Source: Acidobacteriota bacterium (GTDB lineage: Bacteria > Acidobacteriota > UBA6911). Taken from it: DNA of 64,000 bases. Made by a program: the position numbers and the translations under genes. Under the pieces are notes generated by a model. It was not told where the DNA came from and made no database searches. It worked only from the letters and a program-made list of their open reading frames with translations. The stretch covers positions 1 through 64,000 of the forward strand of contig JBBIMP010000018.1 in NCBI GenBank assembly GCA_037444305.1. Reading direction: 5' to 3'. This document shows, piece by piece, positions 11,223 to 19,613 of this stretch (positions are counted from its first letter, which is position 1; every line of letters starts with the position of its first letter).

Positions 11223-14200
11223 TCAGGGTGCGGCGGAGTGGCGCGCATGGCAGAGGGTGTTGACCAGCCGAAGCTCCTCGACCGTCCGGCATGGCGTTGC
11301 CGGCAGGCGAGGACTTGCCACCAGCAGGGTGAGACATCGCGCGCGGGAAATGGCCACGTTCAACCGGTTCCTGCTGAAGAGGAATTCAATATCCCGGGGC
11401 AGATCCTCTGCGCTCGAGGTCGTCATCGAGACGATAACCACCTCCGCCTCCTGCCCCTGGAATTTGTCGACGGTGCCGACACGGGCGCCGGCCGGCAGAA
11501 CCGACCGCAGGCGGTTGACCTGCACATTGTAGGGGGCCACGACGAGAATGTTCTCGGGCCGCATGGGGTGCACGGCGCCGTCCGTGTCGGTGAAGGCCTG
11601 CAGCAGCAGGTTGGAGTAGACCTCGCGCACTACCTGAGCCTCCTCCTCGGATTTCTGCGAGCAGCCGGCGTGATCCACCCCGATGAAGCGGATTCCTGTC
11701 GGGCGCAACTCGGGGTGCGCGCCCCGCTTGAGGAGGAGTCTGCGATTCTGGTTCTTTGCCTCCGGGTGGAGCCGCCCTTCATACACGGCCTCGGATATGA
11801 AACGGCAGACATCGGCGTGCATGCGCCACGTGGTGGGCAGAAAAATCCCCCGCTCGGGCGGGATCGTCGCCGCGTCGCGGAGCAGGTACTCGAGAACAGA
11901 CATCCCCGACTCGCCGGGATGCACGCCCTGGATCGGCTGGCCGAGCTGCATCTGGTCTCCAACCAGCACGATGTTTTTGGCGCTGGTTCCCATAGCCACG
12001 AGGTTTGCCAGCGACACCTGGCCCGCCTCGTCCACGAACAGGCAGTCGAGCCTGCCGTCCATGTCCGGGTGCGCAAACAGCCAAGCCGAGCCGGCGAACA
12101 GGTCGGCGGAGAAATCGAATCTTTCGGTGCGGGTTTCGTTGGCAATCTGCCGCCCTGCGAAGAACGATTCGCTGTTCATTTCGGTCGCCTTCTTGATGCC
12201 GCGAAACGTGAGCCCGGTTTCGTCGGCCCGCCTCTCCACCGCGTGCAGCAGATTGTGGATCGCCTTGTGGGAGTTCGAGGCGACGCCGACCTTCTTTCCC
12301 TGCCGAATCAGCTCCACGATGATGCGGGATGAGACATATGTTTTGCCGGCGCCGGGCGGCCCCTGGATGAGCAGGCAGCTGTTCCTGAGATTGGCGACGG
12401 CGCGGGTGGACTCGATGACAAGGTCCTCCTTCCCGCTGATGATGGGGAGACCGTGCTTGAGGCCCTTGATTGCAGGCAGTTGCCGGAGCAGCAGCGATCG
12501 CGCGGCCGGATACTTCCCATCGCCCGCCGCCATGGAATCGGCGAAGCGGCCCAGGGCATCGTGCAGCACCCTCGTATCTATGGGCCCGGAGGGTATTAGG
12601 GAAAGTTCCGCCGGCAGCGATCCGGCCGAAGCGCCCCGTTTCAACTTCAGGGTGCCTCCTTCCAGGTCCAGCGCCACGATTGTGCCGGCAGGTTCCAACG
12701 TTGCTGCAACCAGACAGCGGTTGCCCGGTCCGAGTTTTGAGTCCTGCGGCGGAAAGCGATACCCGGCGACGATCGAGCGCTTCTCCGTCCGCTGTGGAAT
12801 GCCCGGATCCAGGCCGAGTGCGCCGATGCACTCGTAGTCCTCCACCAGGTCCTCGGGCGTGCTCTCCTGGCGGTCGAACATGGCCCACCATGCCGGCTTG
12901 GCCTCCCGGCGGTGAAAACCGAGCAGGTGCACGACGGTTTCGCGCGCAACCTTCTCCTCCGGAGGGCTGCCCTTCATGAGTTTCTTCCGGCGCGCGGCGA
13001 TTTCCTCCTCCGCCTGGGTTCGGGCAGCGGCTTTTTCCTCGTCCTGGTCCTCCGGCGCCTCGAACCAGGGGGTGCCGTCCGGCCGCAGATCGAGCAGCCA
13101 CTCGCGAAGCAGGTGCGTGGAACGGCAGTCTGCCCGGTTGTAATCCCGGATCTGCTCCAGCAGGCTGTCGTCGTGCGTCAATCGCCACTGCTCGTAAACC
13201 ACGATGCTGTCGCCGGCGCTTGTCACCTCGCCCTCTCGCTTTTTCATGTAGAAAACCTCGAGGTCCTTCAGCGAATAACCCCGCGCGGAAGCCTGGAGGC
13301 CTTCGCGTACGACCTTGTAGAGGTCGACCAGCTTGCGGGCCCGCAGCAGGTGGTCGACTTCCGCCTCGCGCGTGCCGTAGCGCGAGGCCAGCCGTTTGAG
13401 CGCGTTCTCCTCGTAGTGGTTGTAGTGATAGATGTGCGCGCCCGGATGCGCCTCGAGATGCTCCATGAAAAAGTCGACTGCCTGCCGGAACGCCGCCATC
13501 TCCTCGTCGTGGTTGTGGGCCCAGAATTCGCGGAAGACCGGCTTCCGGCTCGCAAACCGGTAAACGCCGAACAGGTATTCCAGGCCCTCGCCGAAGAAAG
13601 GATCCCCTTCGATGTCGAAGAACAGGTCGGCGGCATCGGGTCTGGGCAGCCTTTCGAAGCCTCTGCCCTCCTTGGGCGGGAGGAGCTGCCAGGAGTCCTG
13701 GCCGGTGTCGCGCCTGTTCGTCTGCAGGCGCGCCTGGGTGCGCAGTCGCGTCAGGCTCTCCTGGCCGATCCCGTCAATGCGCCGCGAATCGGGCGTGGAG
13801 GCCAGTGTCCGGGCTGTGGCGATGCCGGCCTCTATCAGCCTGCGGATCTGCGACTGGCGGATGTTGGCGACGAGCGTCAGGTGGTCGTCGTCCTCCCACC
13901 GGCGGCAACAAAGATCGCGCCACCGGCAGAGGTCGCAGTAGCGGCAGCGGCGCGGGTATGAATATTCTGGGGGCGATGCGGCGAATTCCTCGAAGCGGCG
14001 CTGAGCCTCCAGGTGGTAGTGGCGGAAGTCGGCGAAAAGGAAAGCCGCCTCGCTGCCGTCGCCCAGCACCAGGTGCATCGAGCGGGGTGTGAGCCCCTGC
14101 ATCGCCTCCAGCATGTCGGAGTAGCAGCAGAGCTGGATTACGCGGGCGGCCGAAGGCGCTCGGGCCAGCTTTGTGTCGACCGCTTCGTAGCTGAATCTCC

Positions 14201-14558
14201 CAAGCTTGGAAGGGGTGTCGACACGCCGGAGGAAGTCGGCGTAGCCGAACCACGGGTCCTTTTGCAGCGCGGCCTGGTAGATGACGTCGGCGCCTGCGGC
14301 CATTGCCTTGCGGGTCTGGGCGGTCCTTTCTGCCAGGGAGCCATCCGTTGGGATTTCGACCGCCTCCAGGTCTTCGGACAGCAGCTTTGCGAGGTAGGCT
14401 TTTTCGTGTTCCAGCCCTTTCCTGCGGAGGAGTTCGATGCCGGCGTCCTCCCCGGCCTGAGGAAGAGGTTGCTCGCGATGGCGAAGGTCCAGCCATGCGC
14501 AGTGCTCACACTCGAGGAAGCTCAGCAGGGCCGAGGGCGCGTGCATGTGCGGCATCAT
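11223..14558 (-). CDS. Cas4/RecB-like PD-(D/E)xK nuclease (Fe-S) + RNase H-like domain + SF1 (Upf1/Dna2-like) helicase fusion; TM0106 family, Nhi-like
   Basis: 1111 aa. N-terminal Cys cluster CEHCAW...CRYCDLCRWRDLCC (Cas4-type 4Fe-4S). Middle region ..LFFDIEGDPF..EYLFG (RNase H-like, TM0106/YprB). Helicase motifs: LIQGPPGAGKTY (Walker A), LFVDEAGQ (Walker B), VLVGDQMQL, and DKFQGQEAEVVIVS..NRLNVAISRAR (motifs V and VI). Confidence 0.85.
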   Translation of the reverse strand: MMPHMHAPSALLSFLECEHCAWLDLRHREQPLPQAGEDAGIELLRRKGLEHEKAYLAKLLSEDLEAVEIPTDGSLAERTAQTRKAMAAGADVIYQAALQKDPWFGYADFLRRVDTPSKLGRFSYEAVDTKLARAPSAARVIQLCCYSDMLEAMQGLTPRSMHLVLGDGSEAAFLFADFRHYHLEAQRRFEEFAASPPEYSYPRRCRYCDLCRWRDLCCRRWEDDDHLTLVANIRQSQIRRLIEAGIATARTLASTPDSRRIDGIGQESLTRLRTQARLQTNRRDTGQDSWQLLPPKEGRGFERLPRPDAADLFFDIEGDPFFGEGLEYLFGVYRFASRKPVFREFWAHNHDEEMAAFRQAVDFFMEHLEAHPGAHIYHYNHYEENALKRLASRYGTREAEVDHLLRARKLVDLYKVVREGLQASARGYSLKDLEVFYMKKREGEVTSAGDSIVVYEQWRLTHDDSLLEQIRDYNRADCRSTHLLREWLLDLRPDGTPWFEAPEDQDEEKAAARTQAEEEIAARRKKLMKGSPPEEKVARETVVHLLGFHRREAKPAWWAMFDRQESTPEDLVEDYECIGALGLDPGIPQRTEKRSIVAGYRFPPQDSKLGPGNRCLVAATLEPAGTIVALDLEGGTLKLKRGASAGSLPAELSLIPSGPIDTRVLHDALGRFADSMAAGDGKYPAARSLLLRQLPAIKGLKHGLPIISGKEDLVIESTRAVANLRNSCLLIQGPPGAGKTYVSSRIIVELIRQGKKVGVASNSHKAIHNLLHAVERRADETGLTFRGIKKATEMNSESFFAGRQIANETRTERFDFSADLFAGSAWLFAHPDMDGRLDCLFVDEAGQVSLANLVAMGTSAKNIVLVGDQMQLGQPIQGVHPGESGMSVLEYLLRDAATIPPERGIFLPTTWRMHADVCRFISEAVYEGRLHPEAKNQNRRLLLKRGAHPELRPTGIRFIGVDHAGCSQKSEEEAQVVREVYSNLLLQAFTDTDGAVHPMRPENILVVAPYNVQVNRLRSVLPAGARVGTVDKFQGQEAEVVIVSMTTSSAEDLPRDIEFLFSRNRLNVAISRARCLTLLVASPRLPATPCRTVEELRLVNTLCHARHSAAP

Positions 14559-14753
14559 AACAGAACTGAATGCCCGGCAGGCAGGGCCCTCGGGACACGG
14601 AAAAACACAGGCAGGGCTTTTGCCGGCGGCAAAAGCCCTGCTCGCGGATTCCGGCTGGTTTTTCCCTGACGGGGACTATCCATCTATAAAGCCCGGGGAC
14701 CTTGAATCGGGCGGGTGCGGCCTTTATCATCCACGGTTGCTGGAGGAAAGTTT

Positions 14754-15371
14754 ATGAACTGGAAGGGACTGATCGTTCTCTCGCTGGCGGTGTGCATCGC
14801 AGGCTGCGGAAAGAACGGAAATAGCGGCGCAAAGGGCGAGGGGTTATCGGCTGACGAGGAGTGGCACAAGGGGATAGCGGCCGCGATGGAACGCGAGGAT
14901 CATGCCGCGGCGCTGGAACTGATCCGGCCGATAGCGGACAGAGGGGAAGCAGACGGGCAGTTCTTCATGGGCTTCATGCACTATTCCGGCTTCGGGGTGG
15001 CCAAAGACAAGGCGGAGGCGGCCCGGTGGTACCGGATGGCGGCCAAGCAGGGACATGCCAAGGCGCAGGCGAACCTCGGTCTCATGTATCACCTGGGGGA
15101 TGGAATCGACCGGAACCTCGAGGAGTCCATCTACCTCCTCAGGTCCGCCGCCGAGCAGCGCGATTCCGGAGCCCAGTTCATGCTGGGCCTCATCTACAGC
15201 CGGGGAGAGGGCGTGCCGAAGGACCCGGTCCAGGCTTACTTCTGGCTCAATCTGGCCGCCGAAGAAGGTGCGCCGAACGCCGAGAGCTTCAGAAACAAGC
15301 TTGCCGGGGCTCTCTCCGAGGAAGACATTGCCCGCGCCGAAGAGATGGCGCGGAATTGGAAGGCGAAGTAA
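14754..15371 (+). CDS. Sel1-repeat (TPR-like) lipoprotein
   Basis: MNWKGLIVLSLAVCIAGCGK carries a lipobox (IAGC). Four Sel1-like repeats follow, e.g. AKAQANLGLMYHLGDGIDRN and GAQFMLGLIYSRGEGVPKD. An RBS (GGAGGAAAG) lies 5 nt upstream. Confidence 0.75.
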   Translation: MNWKGLIVLSLAVCIAGCGKNGNSGAKGEGLSADEEWHKGIAAAMEREDHAAALELIRPIADRGEADGQFFMGFMHYSGFGVAKDKAEAARWYRMAAKQGHAKAQANLGLMYHLGDGIDRNLEESIYLLRSAAEQRDSGAQFMLGLIYSRGEGVPKDPVQAYFWLNLAAEEGAPNAESFRNKLAGALSEEDIARAEEMARNWKAK

Positions 15372-15456
15372 GAGGCACGAGGCGCAGAGGGTCCCCGAAA
15401 CCCTGCGCAAGTCGGTCCCCCGCCCCTGATTGAGCCGCGGTCCGGTCTTCGCCCGC

Positions 15457-16278
15457 TCACGGGGCAATCCTGGCCGCCGGTGGAAACGCAGCGCTGGCGA
15501 CAATCTCTGCAGCATCTCCGACAGGCACGAGGAAACATGCGGCGAGGCCGCGTGCGTTTGCCCACTTGAGCCCCTGCTCCGGTCCCATGACGTAGAGCGC
15601 CGTGGAGAGAATGTCTGCAGCCAGGGCGCTCTGGTGCAGAACAGTGACCGATCCTCGAAAGGCCGCCGGCCGGCCTGAACGCGGATCGAGGATGTGACCC
15701 ACGCGCCCGCCCGCCGTGGCGCTGTCCCTTTCGGAGCCGCCGCTCGTGGCAAAAGAACCGGACTCGAATTCCAGAGCCAGGAACGGATCCCCGCGCCTCT
15801 CGGGGTGCGGGACGTAAGCCGTCCAGGGCTCGCTGCCGGGGAGCCTTCCGTGCACCGCCAACTGACCTCCCAGGTCGATCATCCAGGGAATAGCTCCATC
15901 GTGCTCCTGCGCACGCAGCGCACGGTCGAGGGCTTCCCCTTTGCCGAAGGCTCCCGAGTCAATCCAGGCATCCGCTTGTCGGGTTATAGTGCAAGCCTTC
16001 GGGTCAAATGCGAAACGCCTCATGCCCGCATTTTTCCGCGCCCTCTCCAGTTCTTCGCCGGAGGGAATCCGGCCTCCGGTGCGCAGTCCCCAGGCATCGA
16101 TCAGGGTGCCGACGGCCGGGTCAAAAGCGAAAGCGGACCATGCGGTCAGCGTGCAGCGCGTGCCCATCAGGTAGACGCTGCGGGTAACCGGTTTCGCTTC
16201 CTCCGAAGCAAAAGGACTTGCCGCCGGTAAAGGAATCGCGAGAAGGCTCGCAACCACTGCTGACCGGAAGCGCTTCAT
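15457..16278 (-). CDS. apbE: ApbE-family FAD:protein FMN transferase (flavin transferase)
   Basis: ..GHILDPRSGRPAAF.. (ApbE signature) with an N-terminal signal peptide MKRFRSAVVASLLAIPLPAASP. Periplasmic. Confidence 0.8.
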   Translation of the reverse strand: MKRFRSAVVASLLAIPLPAASPFASEEAKPVTRSVYLMGTRCTLTAWSAFAFDPAVGTLIDAWGLRTGGRIPSGEELERARKNAGMRRFAFDPKACTITRQADAWIDSGAFGKGEALDRALRAQEHDGAIPWMIDLGGQLAVHGRLPGSEPWTAYVPHPERRGDPFLALEFESGSFATSGGSERDSATAGGRVGHILDPRSGRPAAFRGSVTVLHQSALAADILSTALYVMGPEQGLKWANARGLAACFLVPVGDAAEIVASAAFPPAARIAP

Positions 16279-16697
16279 CTGCGGCCCGACAGCCAATGTC
16301 CGGAAAACACGGCGACGAAAGCCAGGCCCACGGCCAGGTGGACGAGGGCGAGATCGTCGAGCAGAGCCGCGTCGGGAATCACCTGCAGGGCATAGCCCGA
16401 AAGGACCATGAACGGAAGAACGATCATCGCGATGACTCCCGATTTGCGCAGCCGGCGGCCGTTTTCCCGCCGCCGCCCGTTGTCCAGGATGTGCGACCGG
16501 GCCATGGCGCCCATGGCGAAAAGGAACAGCGGGGCGGCCAGGATGTGAATCTTCTGCATCACCGGCTCCAGCGGGTGGTTGACGACGGCGAACGGGTCAT
16601 CTGTTTTCGTGAAGTGTTTCAGATAGTAGTGGGCCAATCCGCTCACAGCCATCACGGCAATGAGAATCTTCAGAGACCCCATCAGCCTGCCGTTCAT
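16275..16697 (-). CDS. Small 4-TM membrane protein (DUF4405-like, His-rich). Candidate redox partner.
   Basis: 140 aa: MNGRLMGSLKILIAVMAVSGLAHYYLKHF... with four hydrophobic segments and conserved His residues. Its ATG overlaps the TGA of the upstream FMN-binding gene (ATGA). The listed 368-aa ORF is an out-of-frame extension. Confidence 0.5.
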   Translation of the reverse strand: MNGRLMGSLKILIAVMAVSGLAHYYLKHFTKTDDPFAVVNHPLEPVMQKIHILAAPLFLFAMGAMARSHILDNGRRRENGRRLRKSGVIAMIVLPFMVLSGYALQVIPDAALLDDLALVHLAVGLAFVAVFSGHWLSGRR

Positions 16698-17302
16698 TTC
16701 CCCGAAGCTCCGGTTTTCCTGCGGAGGAGCACCCGGTCGATTGCCAGGACCCGGCGGGCCGCCTGGTTCGTGGCGGCGGCAGTCAGGGTCGCACCCGCAA
16801 GCGGACGGATCTCGCGCTGGATGTGCAGCTCGCGGGTCAACCGCTTGTCCTGGTACTGGGCGTACCAATTGCCGGGAGCCATGTACTCCTGGGGCTCCAG
16901 AAAGGCCGTGACCTCGATTCGCTTCAATGCTCCTTCGGCGTCCAGGATGATGAGCAGGCTCTCCTTCTTGGTACGGATGATGTGCGTGTCGACGTAGGCC
17001 CGGCCGGCTTCTCGCCCGTCGTTGAACGCCGTGTAGCGCGCGATCAGGGCGCTCGCAATCGGGTTGCCCGCCAGCTCGCCGGCTTCCTTCATCTCGGCCT
17101 CGGTGAGGAAGATGCGTTCGGCTTTGATCGTGGCGCCGGGGAATGCGGAAATCAGCGCCTGCTCCCGCGTGATCAGTCCCCCGGATGCCGCGGGACCCGC
17201 CCGGAGCGTGAGGACGACCGCAAGCAAGCCGACGATCGATGCCGTGCGGTGACCTGACGGGAACCGGTTGAACGCCCTCTCTGAGGAATATGGGATCTTC
17301 AT
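16694..17302 (-). CDS. FMN-binding domain protein (RnfG/NqrC/NosR-type FMN_bind), a likely ApbE flavinylation substrate
   Basis: 202 aa with an N-terminal hydrophobic anchor (HRTASIVGLLAVVLTL) and ..FLTEAEMKEAGELAGNPIA.. / ..AYVDTHIIRTKKESLLIILDAEGALKRIEV.. (FMN_bind fold). Sits in an operon with apbE. Confidence 0.6.
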   Translation of the reverse strand: MKIPYSSERAFNRFPSGHRTASIVGLLAVVLTLRAGPAASGGLITREQALISAFPGATIKAERIFLTEAEMKEAGELAGNPIASALIARYTAFNDGREAGRAYVDTHIIRTKKESLLIILDAEGALKRIEVTAFLEPQEYMAPGNWYAQYQDKRLTRELHIQREIRPLAGATLTAAATNQAARRVLAIDRVLLRRKTGASGK

Positions 17303-17314
17303 CGGAATCCCTGA

Positions 17315-18709
17315 CTAAAATGCATATCCCAGCAGGATGTTGAACTGGTTCTGGCCGTTGCGGGCCCTGGACTTGATCCACTGGTAGTCGCTCTTCACGA
17401 CGATTCCATGCGTCGGGTGGAACTCCAGGCCGGACGTGTGAAACTTCCGGTCCCTCTGCGGGTCGAGGACAAAGCCAGCGGGAACGCGGTCCTGGGTGTT
17501 CACCTTTTCGAAGCGGTAGTAGGGGGTCAGCCGGACCGACTCCGTGTGCCGGGCCAGGAGGTTGTATCCGAACTGGAGGAAGCCCCCCTGAAGAACTTCG
17601 CCGATGGAGTTGGCGCCGGTGAGGTTGCGGGCGCGGTTCAGATCGGCGACGTCTTCGAGCTCGGCGCGGGCATAGAGGGCCCGGACGTCGAAGCCGCGCA
17701 TCTGAACCTGGCCGTGCAGTTCGCCGATGGTGGTGCCGACCTTGATCTCGCGGCCGTTCAGGAGGTATTGGCCCTGGCCCGAGCCACCCCGGTAGAGGGA
17801 TCCCCCCGCCACCACGCCGGGCATCGGGGAGAAGTCCAGCCTCCCGACGAAGGCCATGTCGGTAGCCTTGGCGAAGGAGCCCTTCTGGCGGCCTCCGCGA
17901 AGGCCGGCGGCGCTGAACCCGGCGGCGTCCAGGCCGTTGACTACGTAGGCGCGGTATTCGAACCTGCCGGCCGATCCGAGAAAGCCGAAGCCGTTTTCAC
18001 GCCAGGTCGCCGGGATGATGCGGGTTTCCGTTTCGCTGCGCCGCGCGCCGATGAAAGCGGTCGGCTCGTGGAACTCGTTGGTCAGCCCCATGGGAACCAG
18101 CAGCAGGCCGCCGCGCACGGTGAGGTGATCGTTCGCCAGGTAGTCGAGGTATACGAACTCGGGGGCGACGGTGCCGGATTTGCCGGTGTCGGCGTGTTCG
18201 AATTCGATCTCGGAGTTGAAAACGAACTTGTCGTTGAAACGGTAGCCGGCGTAGATGACCGCGCGGAGAAAGTCGAGTTGCGAGCCCTTGCGCAGCTTGC
18301 TCCCATTCTCGAGTTGGCCGTCGAAGTTCTCGTAGAGCATTTCGCCGTAGCCTGCCAGCGAAACCCCGTGGCGCTTCCTGTAGACGGTGGCGGCCGAGGA
18401 GCCGAGACCGAGCGAACGGGCTCTCCCCTCGGTGATCTCGATGTCCGGCTCGCCGCTGCGGAGCTTCTCGACTTCTTCCGCCAGGACGTCCAGATGGCGC
18501 TGCATCTCAGCAGGCTGCGCCTCGGCCTTTTCCTCCCGGGCGGCCAGGAGCGCCTCGAGCCTCGCGATCCGGGCCTCCAGGGCCTGGATCTTCTGTTTGA
18601 GGTCCTCCTCCTGGGCAGGGCTCCATGAGGGTGCAAGGACGGCGGCAAACATCGCCGCCGCAACGATTGGACGGATCTTCTCCAAAACACTATTCATAAC
18701 ATCACCCAT
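17315..18709 (-). CDS. Outer-membrane porin with an N-terminal coiled-coil
   Basis: 464 aa with a signal peptide and a coiled-coil (KQKIQALEARIARLEALLAAREEK). Alternating beta-strand pattern and the C-terminal ..NILLGYAF outer-membrane signature. Confidence 0.6.
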   Translation of the reverse strand: MGDVMNSVLEKIRPIVAAAMFAAVLAPSWSPAQEEDLKQKIQALEARIARLEALLAAREEKAEAQPAEMQRHLDVLAEEVEKLRSGEPDIEITEGRARSLGLGSSAATVYRKRHGVSLAGYGEMLYENFDGQLENGSKLRKGSQLDFLRAVIYAGYRFNDKFVFNSEIEFEHADTGKSGTVAPEFVYLDYLANDHLTVRGGLLLVPMGLTNEFHEPTAFIGARRSETETRIIPATWRENGFGFLGSAGRFEYRAYVVNGLDAAGFSAAGLRGGRQKGSFAKATDMAFVGRLDFSPMPGVVAGGSLYRGGSGQGQYLLNGREIKVGTTIGELHGQVQMRGFDVRALYARAELEDVADLNRARNLTGANSIGEVLQGGFLQFGYNLLARHTESVRLTPYYRFEKVNTQDRVPAGFVLDPQRDRKFHTSGLEFHPTHGIVVKSDYQWIKSRARNGQNQFNILLGYAF

Positions 18710-18896
18710 ATCAAGATTTTCACGCTATTATGAAAATCAATTTCAGGAAACACTATAAGCGCGGGAATTCCTCTGTCAAGAAAATTATGATTTGACTAGT
18801 AATTGCCTGCGGGAAGGTTCAGACGTCTTTGTGCTTGTTGGTGCCTTTGTGGTGAAGGGTCGAGATCAACCACAAAGGCATCAAGGTTCATGGAGT

Positions 18897-19613
18897 TCAC
18901 CAGACGAGTTCGAACTCGTACTTGTCCTGGCCGTGCTTGGTGTCGCTGATCCGGATCACAGCCGTGAAGCCGTTGTCCGGGGACGGATGCTGCACTACTT
19001 CGAGGGATCCCCTGCCGTCGAGCTTGCGCAATCCGAGTTCGACGCGCCGCTGCGGCAGCGCGGAGGTAAACTGGAACGTCACGTTGGTGGCATGGAATCC
19101 GGAAACGGTCCGCACGTCCGCCTCCGCTCCCTGCACGAACACATGAACCTCCCCGTCGACCGTTCCCTTCCAGCGCAGCCGCCCGGTGATCTTCTTTTCC
19201 GGCACCGGCTCCACCGGCTGCCATTGGGAGGGGCTCAGTTCGCGCGAGATGTCTTCCAGCACCCGCTGCATGTCCTGGAGCTGCCGCCTGCCGTGGGAAT
19301 ATCTTTCGGCGGCGCGGAGCTGGCCTGAGACAATGGCCACCGCGTCCCGGAGTTCCGACTCGGGGCGGCGGTCGTAGGCCATCCGCCGGAGGAGGCCGGC
19401 GCCGGCGTTAATCTGCTGCGCCAGGAACAGGACTTCGACGTCCTGCCGGTTGCCGCGGCCGCGGTTGTTGAAGCCGCGGTAGCTGTCTGCGAAGAATTCC
19501 TCTGCCATCCGCGCCAGCCTGTCGACCCGGGTTTCGAAATACCGGGCCTCGGCGGCCGGCATCAGGCCGATGCAGAAGGCCAACCCGAGCAATGCCTTGA
19601 ATGTGCTTTTCAT
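18897..19613 (-). CDS. Hypothetical secreted protein
   Basis: Signal peptide MKSTFKALLGLAFCIGLMPAAEA (start chosen at M37 of the listed ORF). No recognisable domain. Confidence 0.4.
   Translation of the reverse strand: MKSTFKALLGLAFCIGLMPAAEARYFETRVDRLARMAEEFFADSYRGFNNRGRGNRQDVEVLFLAQQINAGAGLLRRMAYDRRPESELRDAVAIVSGQLRAAERYSHGRRQLQDMQRVLEDISRELSPSQWQPVEPVPEKKITGRLRWKGTVDGEVHVFVQGAEADVRTVSGFHATNVTFQFTSALPQRRVELGLRKLDGRGSLEVVQHPSPDNGFTAVIRISDTKHGQDKYEFELVW

Follow-up and report, generated by a model that had tools for sequence, protein, structure and literature searches.

Four co-oriented open reading frames lie on the minus strand of the window, the 64,000-nucleotide stretch of Acidobacteriota DNA analyzed here, and encode in 5' to 3' order a porin-like protein, an FMN_bind-like protein, a protein with four transmembrane (4-TM) helices, and an ApbE flavin transferase (Table 1). 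The porin and FMN_bind genes are separated by 12 nt, the FMN_bind and 4-TM genes share the ATGA overlap that a first-pass annotation had taken as translational coupling, and a second ATGA overlap joins the 4-TM and ApbE genes. Upstream of the porin gene, in the region's only AT-rich stretch (GC 0.54), lies a sigma-70-like promoter that matches at 11 of 12 positions and is the sole promoter-like site between positions 15300 and 19000; shuffled sequences average 0.4. This one promoter-like site, the short gap, and the two overlaps indicate that the four genes form one operon. Gene starts differ between calls, with NCBI placing that of the porin at 18697 (460 aa) and the ORF list beginning the ApbE frame at a TTG at 16296. 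Neither a second ApbE nor other iron genes are present in the 64-kb window.

Table 1. Genes and regulatory features of the predicted operon, in window coordinates
Feature	Position	Strand	Length or remark
Outer-membrane 16-strand porin (predicted), signal peptide and N-terminal coiled-coil stalk	17315-18709	-	464 aa
Secreted FMN_bind protein (RnfG/NqrC/NosR-type), predicted ApbE substrate	16694-17302	-	202 aa
4-TM inner-membrane protein, predicted di-haem cytochrome b	16275-16697	-	140 aa
ApbE flavin transferase, in-frame deletion in the N-terminal domain	15457-16278	-	273 aa from ATG
Sigma-70-like promoter, TTGACA-16 nt-TATAGT	18752..18779	-	upstream of porin gene
Predicted Fur box, 15-bp 7-1-7 palindrome	18731..18745	.	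starts 7 nt downstream of the -10 hexamer

The porin/FMN_bind/4-TM trio together with ApbE is conserved in Acidobacteriota, and the module was found in at least 206 species-level genomes. The FMN_bind and cytochrome genes are adjacent in 79 of 79 genome loci, ApbE immediately follows the cytochrome in 75 of 79 and is fused to it in two, and the porin immediately precedes FMN_bind in 66 of 80; a fusion of FMN_bind with ApbE was seen in one locus (L096). With 79-80 independent genome loci sharing the set, the arrangement can hardly be due to chance. The four-gene operon described by the first-pass annotation holds both in the window, where all four genes lie as it had placed them, and in related genomes. 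Genes for NifU-like, SBP_bac_3, PQQ dehydrogenase, and PSD/PSCyt3 plus HXXSHH proteins, as well as an M14 peptidase, a Sel1 protein, and a helicase, were considered as parts of the system and excluded because the neighbors differ from locus to locus. Where the operon has no porin gene, a porin homologue is encoded elsewhere in the genome; in one such genome the stand-alone homologue has no clear Fur-type box (see below) and no informative neighbors, so the porin may have a wider role. In another locus (L086), a TonB-dependent receptor adjoins the porin.

The ApbE assignment was upheld by Pfam (PF02424, 154.4 bits against a cut-off of 25.6), but an in-frame deletion of ∼65 residues that truncates the protein had escaped the first-pass annotation. 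The window protein covers positions 57-266 of the 266-position HMM, whereas orthologues of 337-376 aa cover positions 1-266. The missing residues (alignment columns 74-138) include near-invariant ones and are present in all nine orthologues compared, and the window protein falls short of the complete two-T-fold architecture. The sequences GH195ILDPR and AD222ILST226A are invariant in the ApbE alignment and are candidates for the general-base His and the Mg-binding D..S/T motifs; in Vc_ApbE, the catalytic and Mg-binding residues are His257 and Asp285 (PMC12052999). Given the N-terminal loss, the module may be impaired in this genome.

The putative ApbE substrate scores below the Pfam cut-off for FMN_bind (PF04205, 13.6 bits, E 0.11, against 22). 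It has more than 1185 homologues, some of them named FMN-binding or RnfG, and a precomputed PF04205 match is recorded for 3 of 120. The family profile matches RnfG (9eri_G, E 0.005), with IRPIAGATLTA aligned to IQAITGSTITS. The residues G170-A-T172-L-T174 are invariant in the alignment, and the motif R-P-x-A-G-A-[TS]-L-T is found in ∼115 of 120 homologues, with Ser replacing Thr in a few. When set against the flavinylation motif D-x-x-[ST]-G-A-[ST], the G-A-[TS] portion is present, whereas R stands at -6 instead of D and A at -3 instead of S/T. The first-pass annotation had looked to a conserved flavinylation motif as a mark of this protein: a conserved Thr/Ser that aligns with RnfG is indeed there, but within a variant motif that lacks the canonical D and S/T. 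A D-to-A substitution in the motif is reported to have minor effects only (PMC12052999). T172, which aligns with the flavinylated Thr of RnfG, is the predicted site of flavinylation.

Five His residues are conserved in the 4-TM protein. H51 and H69 on TM2 occur in 150 of 150 representatives and H120 and H134 on TM4 in 147 of 150, with H51 and H120 on the periplasmic side and H69 and H134 on the cytoplasmic side; the fifth, an invariant H41, lies in a periplasmic DPFxxxNHP loop. The conserved His residues remarked on earlier are thus real, except that H23, possibly among those counted, is not conserved (position 23 is Y in 113 of 150). The earlier likening to DUF4405 (PF14358) did not survive, since that family has six TM helices as opposed to four here and is matched weakly by only 2 of 26 members (best E 0.063). 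The score for Ni_hydr_CYTB (PF01292) is 29.2 bits, just under the cut-off of 30.1, and 10 of 26 family members give weak matches, none over the cut-off; the Ni_hydr_CYTB ligand pattern (TM1, TM2, and two on TM4) was rejected, as there is no conserved TM1 His. A structure model built from only 10 sequences shows four helices, and its best natural fold matches are complex III cytochrome b, HyaC, CybB, and b6. A PDB sequence search with the cytochrome profile yielded nothing useful, only Dcytb at E 2.4. The sub-threshold Ni_hydr_CYTB score, the cytochrome b-type fold, and the four TM His residues support the kinship to a haem-binding family on which the first-pass reading depended, and the two invariant His pairs at two depths fit the class of di-haem transmembrane cytochromes b.

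Like the Ni_hydr_CYTB/cytochrome b561 proteins (HyaC, FdnI, CybB; PF01292) and the cytochrome b/b6 core, which provide its best sequence and fold matches, the 4-TM protein is a four-helix bundle predicted to stack two haems across the membrane. Its His residues are distributed 2+2 on TM2 and TM4, as in cytochrome b/b6, rather than 1+1+2 as in FdnI, and it differs from Ni_hydr_CYTB/b561 in being far smaller (140-160 aa in the family) and in its extra periplasmic-loop His. As described by Huang et al. 2024 (PMC11334425), DUF4405 cytochromes are likewise small, have four conserved His residues, and are encoded beside apbE and a flavinylated protein, but they have six TM helices, occur in Proteobacteria and Firmicutes, and accompany Flavodoxin_4, whereas the partner of the four-helix protein is FMN_bind.

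The outer-membrane porin with an N-terminal coiled coil proposed earlier was recovered in an AlphaFold2 model (pLDDT 82.8), in which helices at residues 31-58 and 66-85 are followed by 16 strands. Foldseek matched the model to OmpU, OmpT, OmpF, OprP, and OmpM1 at E 1e-11 to 1e-12. With strand 5 followed by a loop that folds inward, and with an aromatic residue at the C terminus (the sequence ends in GYAF), the modeled protein has the features of a 16-strand bacterial porin. It has no family match in Pfam or NCBIfam, and a PDB sequence search returned only coiled-coil noise. More than 2900 homologues are 55-66% identical and share the invariant motifs RSGE, NSEIEFEH, NEFHEP, TWRENG, and RGGRQKG. 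The 16-strand barrel with its conserved constriction loop and the N-terminal periplasmic extension are shared with specific 16-strand porins of the OprP kind and stalked porins of the OmpM1 or DcaP kind. Unlike these known porins, it matches no sequence family, carries strongly conserved acidic and His-rich motifs (NSEIEFEH, NEFHEP) in place of an arginine ladder, and is encoded in a redox operon predicted to be Fur-regulated.

Scanning for the E. coli Fur consensus gave matches at only 8-15 of 19 positions but brought to light a palindrome (TGAAAATCAATTTCA on the plus strand, TGAAATTGATTTTCA on the gene strand) that matches once in the 64-kb window. A box of this type occurs no more than 600 bp upstream of the operon's first gene in 59 of 79 genome loci, as compared to 17 matches in the remaining 978 kb, and in operons that lack the porin it lies upstream of FMN_bind. 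In metagenomes, the form of the box typical of Vicinamibacterales was located next to fur in 17 loci, ferritin in 5, feoB in 4, and haem oxygenase in 1, and the box also precedes P19, periplasmic CbiX-like, FbpABC-like, and DUF6787 genes. Because the palindrome tracks the first gene of the operon and precedes fur, feoB, ferritin, haem oxygenase, P19, and FbpABC genes, it was assigned as a Fur box, with the variant consensus TGAGAYTnARTCTCA / TGAAAWTnAWTTTCA. The operon is predicted to belong to the Fur regulon, having at its promoter a 7-1-7 operator common to fur and iron-homeostasis genes, and Fur would act by repression, not activation. The box, absent from the first-pass annotation, ties the module to iron.

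Because the conserved operon sits behind a Fur box, we favor, with a probability of roughly 0.6, a Fur-controlled periplasmic ferric reductase module for iron acquisition, in which a short electron wire would run from the inner membrane to the periplasm. This model builds on features computed here, namely a conserved order of genes, the Fur box with its regulon, the folds of the proteins, and the His and Thr residues that are conserved in them. Under iron limitation, Fur would leave its operator, which overlaps the transcription start, and the operon would be expressed. Exported periplasmic ApbE would move FMN from FAD onto Thr172 of the FMN_bind protein. The 4-TM protein would hold two b-type haems between TM2 and TM4, with H51/H120 as ligands near the periplasm and H69/H134 near the cytoplasm, and would pass electrons supplied by the quinol pool or by a cytoplasmic donor across to the flavoprotein. 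The flavin, once reduced, would then reduce Fe(III), free or chelated, that enters through the dedicated and probably cation-selective porin, and the released Fe(II) would be imported by transporters encoded elsewhere, which in other lineages are adjacent (FTR1/EfeU, P19, FbpABC). Ferric chelates are readily reduced by reduced flavins. Links between flavinylated systems and iron assimilation have been described, as have PepSY/DUF2271/ApbE clusters under Fur repression (PMC8238504, PMC3751524); in Bifidobacterium breve, a gene cluster tied to iron uptake includes the gene for the FMN-binding protein SifE (PMC5449479). The placement of the four genes beside an FTR1/EfeU permease gene in L116 and L135, and the TonB-dependent receptor next to the porin in L086, also count in favor of the ferric reductase reading. 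The Thr site, the haem-family kinship, and the recurrent gene set also support the transmembrane electron-transfer chain predicted by the first-pass annotation. Points against the ferric reductase reading are the sub-threshold Pfam scores of the FMN_bind protein and the cytochrome, the non-canonical motif, the truncated ApbE, the porin homologues encoded elsewhere, and the lack of an inner-membrane iron transporter gene in the Acidobacterial operons, the window's included.

Because Fur regulons include storage and stress genes, Fur control alone is no proof of uptake. An alternative that we regard as improbable reverses the electron flow, so that the module would serve as an electron sink for Fe(II) oxidation during FTR1/EfeU-type transport, as proposed for FtrABCD and Fet3-Ftr1, with electrons running from the periplasm through the cytochrome to the quinone pool. 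FTR1-type permeases are usually coupled to ferroxidation, and in L116 and L135, which belong to another lineage than the window's, the module sits inside a fur-FTR1/EfeU operon, separating fur-FTR1/EfeU from a 307-aa ORF with which it is contiguous in L100 and L148; P19 genes that carry a Fur box of their own are found close by in L044, L052, and L082. However, the midpoint potential of protein-bound FMN is low, which would make Fe(II) oxidation by the flavin unfavorable, most Acidobacterial loci have neither FTR1 nor P19 within 7 kb, and no cupredoxin or peroxidase partner is found at the module.

Ranked below the electron sink is a role in iron-sparing or protective periplasmic redox chemistry, with the flavin carrier replacing an iron-rich one when iron is limiting or the module acting as a CybB-like scavenger of superoxide or oxidants; no conserved partner oxidoreductase adjoins the module, and the dedicated, highly conserved porin and the FTR1/P19/FbpABC link point instead to a substrate that enters from outside. 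The least probable of the alternatives is that the module exports electrons, for respiration or extracellular electron transfer, to external Fe(III)/Mn(IV) or to soluble shuttles crossing the porin, as in the flavin-based extracellular electron transfer of Listeria or porin-cytochrome conduits. While a membrane carrier, a flavinylated extracytoplasmic protein, and an outer-membrane barrel do resemble such systems (PMC8238504, PMC9973259), the Fur box and iron-uptake regulon fit assimilation rather than respiration, a single FMN would be unable to span the outer membrane, and the cluster includes no multihaem or multi-flavin protein, NADH dehydrogenase, or quinone-biosynthesis gene.

A more far-reaching form of the ferric reductase reading, which we put forward as speculative and on balance unlikely, is that porin, flavoprotein, and cytochrome make up one trans-envelope machine. 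The conserved coiled-coil stalk of a trimeric, cation-selective porin would dock onto the flavoprotein and cytochrome, and Fe(III) would be reduced at the periplasmic exit of the barrel. This would amount to TonB-independent, flavin-driven reductive uptake, typical of Acidobacteriota and found in a few other phyla, with a previously unclassified minimal di-haem cytochrome b. The porin envisaged for such a machine has a glutamate ladder (E167/E169/E171) and a His/Glu-rich constriction loop.

Among known systems, the PepSY-like (FoxB/VciB) plus DUF2271 plus ApbE clusters of Caulobacter and Shewanella (PMC8238504, PMC3751524) likewise combine a di-haem membrane protein, an ApbE-flavinylated periplasmic protein, ApbE, and Fur control, and periplasmic ferric reduction for assimilation has been proposed for them as well. 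They differ in using PepSY_TM (PF03929) and a DUF2271 domain, in having no dedicated porin described, and in occurring mainly in Proteobacteria. The P19/FTR1-associated FMN-binding proteins and the FtrABCD/EfeUOB iron uptake systems (PMC8238504, PMC5449479) likewise show a genetic link of an FMN_bind protein to iron permeases, as the module does in L116 and L135. These clusters are without a transmembrane electron carrier or porin of their own, and the Acidobacteriota module stands alone.

A minimal four-helix cytochrome b would be a sixth kind of membrane electron carrier among the flavinylation-associated systems catalogued to date, the porin would be the first component of such systems in the outer membrane, and the motif recognized by ApbE would be a variant one. 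Terms for the four-helix cytochrome, the outer-membrane component, and the variant motif are absent from the main text of the 2021 flavinylation survey, and the 2024 survey, as far as covered here, describes only six-helix DUF4405, PepSY, and MsrQ cytochromes. Acidobacteriota, whose routes of iron acquisition are poorly known, rank among the most abundant bacteria in soil. The Fur-box variant offers a direct means of mapping iron regulons in this phylum and in other uncultured groups.

The operon region (15457-18709) holds four tightly packed minus-strand ORFs, encoding a porin-like protein, an FMN_bind-like protein, a 4-TM protein and ApbE. Only 12 nt separate the porin-like and FMN_bind-like ORFs, and the ATGA coupling of the FMN_bind and 4-TM genes described in the first-pass annotation is present, with a further ATGA stop/start overlap at the 4-TM/ApbE junction. 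The sole sigma-70-like promoter within 15300-19000 sits inside the only AT-rich stretch of the operon region. The window sequence corresponds to GCA_964538715.1, contig CAZIEJ010000014.1. Beyond a convergent Sel1-repeat gene, the operon adjoins a gene for a 1111-aa protein with an RNase_H_2-like N-terminal domain and a superfamily-1 helicase (AAA_11/AAA_12/AAA_30), which is not conserved with the operon.

Coordinates of the operon, its upstream elements and neighboring genes in the window
Feature	Coordinates	Strand	Remarks
Porin-like protein, 464 aa	17315-18709	minus	ORF; NCBI gene call starts 18697
FMN_bind-like protein, 202 aa	16694-17302	minus	ORF
4-TM protein, 140 aa	16275-16697	minus	ORF
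ApbE, 273 aa	15457-16278	minus	ORF
Sigma-70-like promoter TTGACA-16-TATAGT	18779-18752	minus	5' of porin gene
Predicted Fur-box palindrome TGAAATTGATTTTCA	18745-18731	gene strand	7 nt downstream of -10 hexamer
RNase_H_2-like/helicase protein	11223-14558	minus
Sel1-repeat gene	14715-15371

One genome per GTDB species was scanned for the flavoprotein gene, yielding 206 loci, which in essentially every case carry the label Acidobacteriota (Vicinamibacterales, Terriglobia, Bryobacteraceae, Aminicenantes). Gene order was counted in 80 fetched loci: the cytochrome (4-TM) gene follows the FMN_bind gene in every one, ApbE comes directly after the cytochrome in 75/79 and is fused to it in two, and the porin gene lies immediately 5' in 66/80. 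Because the outer flanking genes vary between loci, the four genes amount to a self-contained module. Fusions of the cytochrome with ApbE are common across the cytochrome family (1401 representative clusters), and a low-GC contig (L096) encodes an FMN_bind-ApbE fusion; instances of the two fusion types include proteins P0258, P0261, P0266, P0275 and P0344 and loci L029 (7468-8943), L031 (7477-8946) and L096 (4382-6067). Two Vicinamibacterales loci carry a PSD/PSCyt3 (DUF1592-type) and HXXSHH (DUF1552) pair, then an ankyrin-repeat protein, directly 3' of ApbE on the same strand (L085 12384-16186; L086 12219-15982).

A palindrome of the TGAAATTGATTTTCA type has a single match in the window. The same 7-1-7 arrangement (TGA-N9-TCA) recurs across the genome loci, with the form TGAGAYTnARTCTCA in Vicinamibacterales, whereas other groups have TGAAAWTnAWTTTCA. 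In 59/79 loci it occurs ≤600 bp upstream of the operon's leading gene, often as a pair spaced 63-68 bp apart, and it precedes the FMN_bind gene in loci that lack the porin; the remaining 978 kb contains 17 matches, most of which precede genes for P19 (PF10634), a secreted CbiX-like protein, a DUF6787 membrane protein or an FbpABC-like transporter. Searching public metagenomes for exact matches to TTGAGACT[C/G]AGTCTCAA gave 80 loci, whose flanks encode Fur-family regulators (17 loci), ferritin or bacterioferritin (5), FeoB (4), haem oxygenase (1), homologues of the operon's porin (3) and ApbE (1). All five regulators tested match Pfam FUR, and the one scanned against NCBIfam fits Fur models best. 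Since the palindrome precedes fur, ferritin, feoB and haem oxygenase genes, it is a predicted Fur box that places the operon in the iron regulon, and probably represents a variant in use by Acidobacteriota and other uncultured lineages. Near the module, a separate box accompanies the gene for a secreted CbiX-like (chelatase-fold) protein of two domains (L039 2986-3939 and L044 2260-3195, both minus strand; L079; L082), and in some loci the adjacent gene encodes P19 and likewise carries a box. In 12 Vicinamibacterales loci (L044 4765-5106 and 11 others), the gene directly 5' of the porin encodes a small DUF6787 membrane protein and has a box to itself.

The 4-TM protein scored 29.2 bits against Ni_hydr_CYTB, just below the cut-off of 30.1, and AF2 models it (pLDDT 84.5) as a bundle of four helices, for which Foldseek ranks HyaC and complex III cytochrome b highest (probability 0.99-1.0, E about 0.1), in line with kinship to a haem-binding family. 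The conserved histidines reported in the first-pass annotation were borne out among 150 representatives of 50%-identity clusters: H51 and H69 of TM2 are kept in 150/150, H120 and H134 of TM4 in 147/150 and H41, in a DPFxxxNHP loop, in 146/150, while H23 is not conserved. The positive-inside rule predicts a cytoplasmic N-terminus. This would place H51/H120 towards the periplasmic face and H69/H134 towards the cytoplasmic one, as expected of two bis-His haems stacked one above the other in the membrane. The resemblance to DUF4405 suggested earlier did not hold, as just 2/26 members gave a weak match and DUF4405 has six helices (PMC11334425).

The FMN_bind-like protein scored under the cut-off for Pfam FMN_bind (13.6 bits) and belongs to a family of >1185 proteins, some labelled FMN-binding or RnfG by their sources. 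G170-A-T172-L-T174 is invariant in this family, and about 115/120 homologues carry R-P-x-A-G-A-[T/S]-L-T. The family profile matches RnfG (9eri_G, E 0.005), aligning IRPIAGATLTA to IQAITGSTITS, which the published motif D-x-x-[S/T]-G-A-[S/T] (PMC12052999) leads us to take as the RnfG flavinylation motif. Of the flavinylation motif sought in this protein, the invariant G-A-[T/S] part is present, whereas R replaces D and A replaces the first S/T; a D-to-A change is reported to have only minor effects (PMC12052999).

The window ApbE matches Pfam ApbE (154 bits) over HMM positions 57-266 only, whereas its orthologues (337-376 aa) span the whole model. Aligned with nine orthologues, it lacks columns 74-138 (~65 residues, near-invariant positions among them), an in-frame deletion of ~65 codons near 16130-16150 that costs roughly HMM positions 10-56. 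The deletion leaves the reading frame open and the C-terminal motifs in place. Two assemblies, which may share reads, agree on the deletion, and no second ApbE was found in the window. Going by the domain description in PMC12052999, the deletion probably removes part of the N-terminal T-fold.

The porin-like protein had no match among Pfam or NCBIfam families. In its model (pLDDT 82.8), a signal peptide and a pair of long helices precede a barrel of 16 strands, the fifth of which is followed by a long loop; the model resembles OmpU, OmpT, OmpF, OprP and OmpM1 (Foldseek, E 1e-11 to 1e-12), and agrees with the upstream coiled-coil porin of the first-pass annotation. Conservation of the >2900 homologues is unusually high (55-66% identity), and their invariant acidic, His and Arg motifs cluster in strand 3 (NSEIEFEH) and two loops. 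Genomes without the porin in the operon still encode a close homologue elsewhere. At L085 (8820-9983) the gene call splits the porin into ORFs of 232 and 150 aa, which may reflect a disrupted copy.

The operon shares its logic with PepSY-like, MsrQ-like and DUF4405 flavinylation systems but differs from them in its distinct four-helix membrane protein family, variant flavinylation motif and dedicated porin. No description of the module turned up in a literature search; the main text of the 2021 flavinylation survey does not mention porin, Acidobacteria or cytochrome b, and the consulted parts of the 2024 paper (PMC11334425) give only six-helix DUF4405, PepSY and MsrQ as cytochromes.

Two loci of a different lineage (L116 and L135, 35-40% identity) encode, in this order, fur, FTR1/EfeU, ApbE, porin, FMN_bind protein, cytochrome and finally a 307-aa protein that belongs to no known family. 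In L100 and L148, fur, FTR1 and the 307-aa gene are present but the four genes are not; in L116 (5456-10863) and L135 these four thus appear to be inserted as a cassette between FTR1/EfeU and the 307-aa gene, inside a fur-led operon. The module might serve as the sink for electrons from Fe(II) oxidised at FTR1, although flavin potentials and the absence of FTR1 from most loci make this unlikely. An iron-sparing or protective redox role is a slightly weaker candidate, and respiratory extracellular electron transfer the least probable, given the Fur control and single flavin.

We favor, with a probability of roughly 0.6, a Fur-derepressed periplasmic ferric reductase, and infer the steps that follow gene regulation. 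ApbE would load FMN onto T172 of the secreted flavoprotein, electrons would cross the inner membrane via the di-haem cytochrome, and the flavin would reduce ferric iron entering by the porin. The resulting ferrous iron would be imported via transporters encoded elsewhere or, in some lineages, adjacently. Such a ferric reductase would agree with published work linking flavinylation to iron assimilation (PMC8238504, PMC3751524, PMC5449479).
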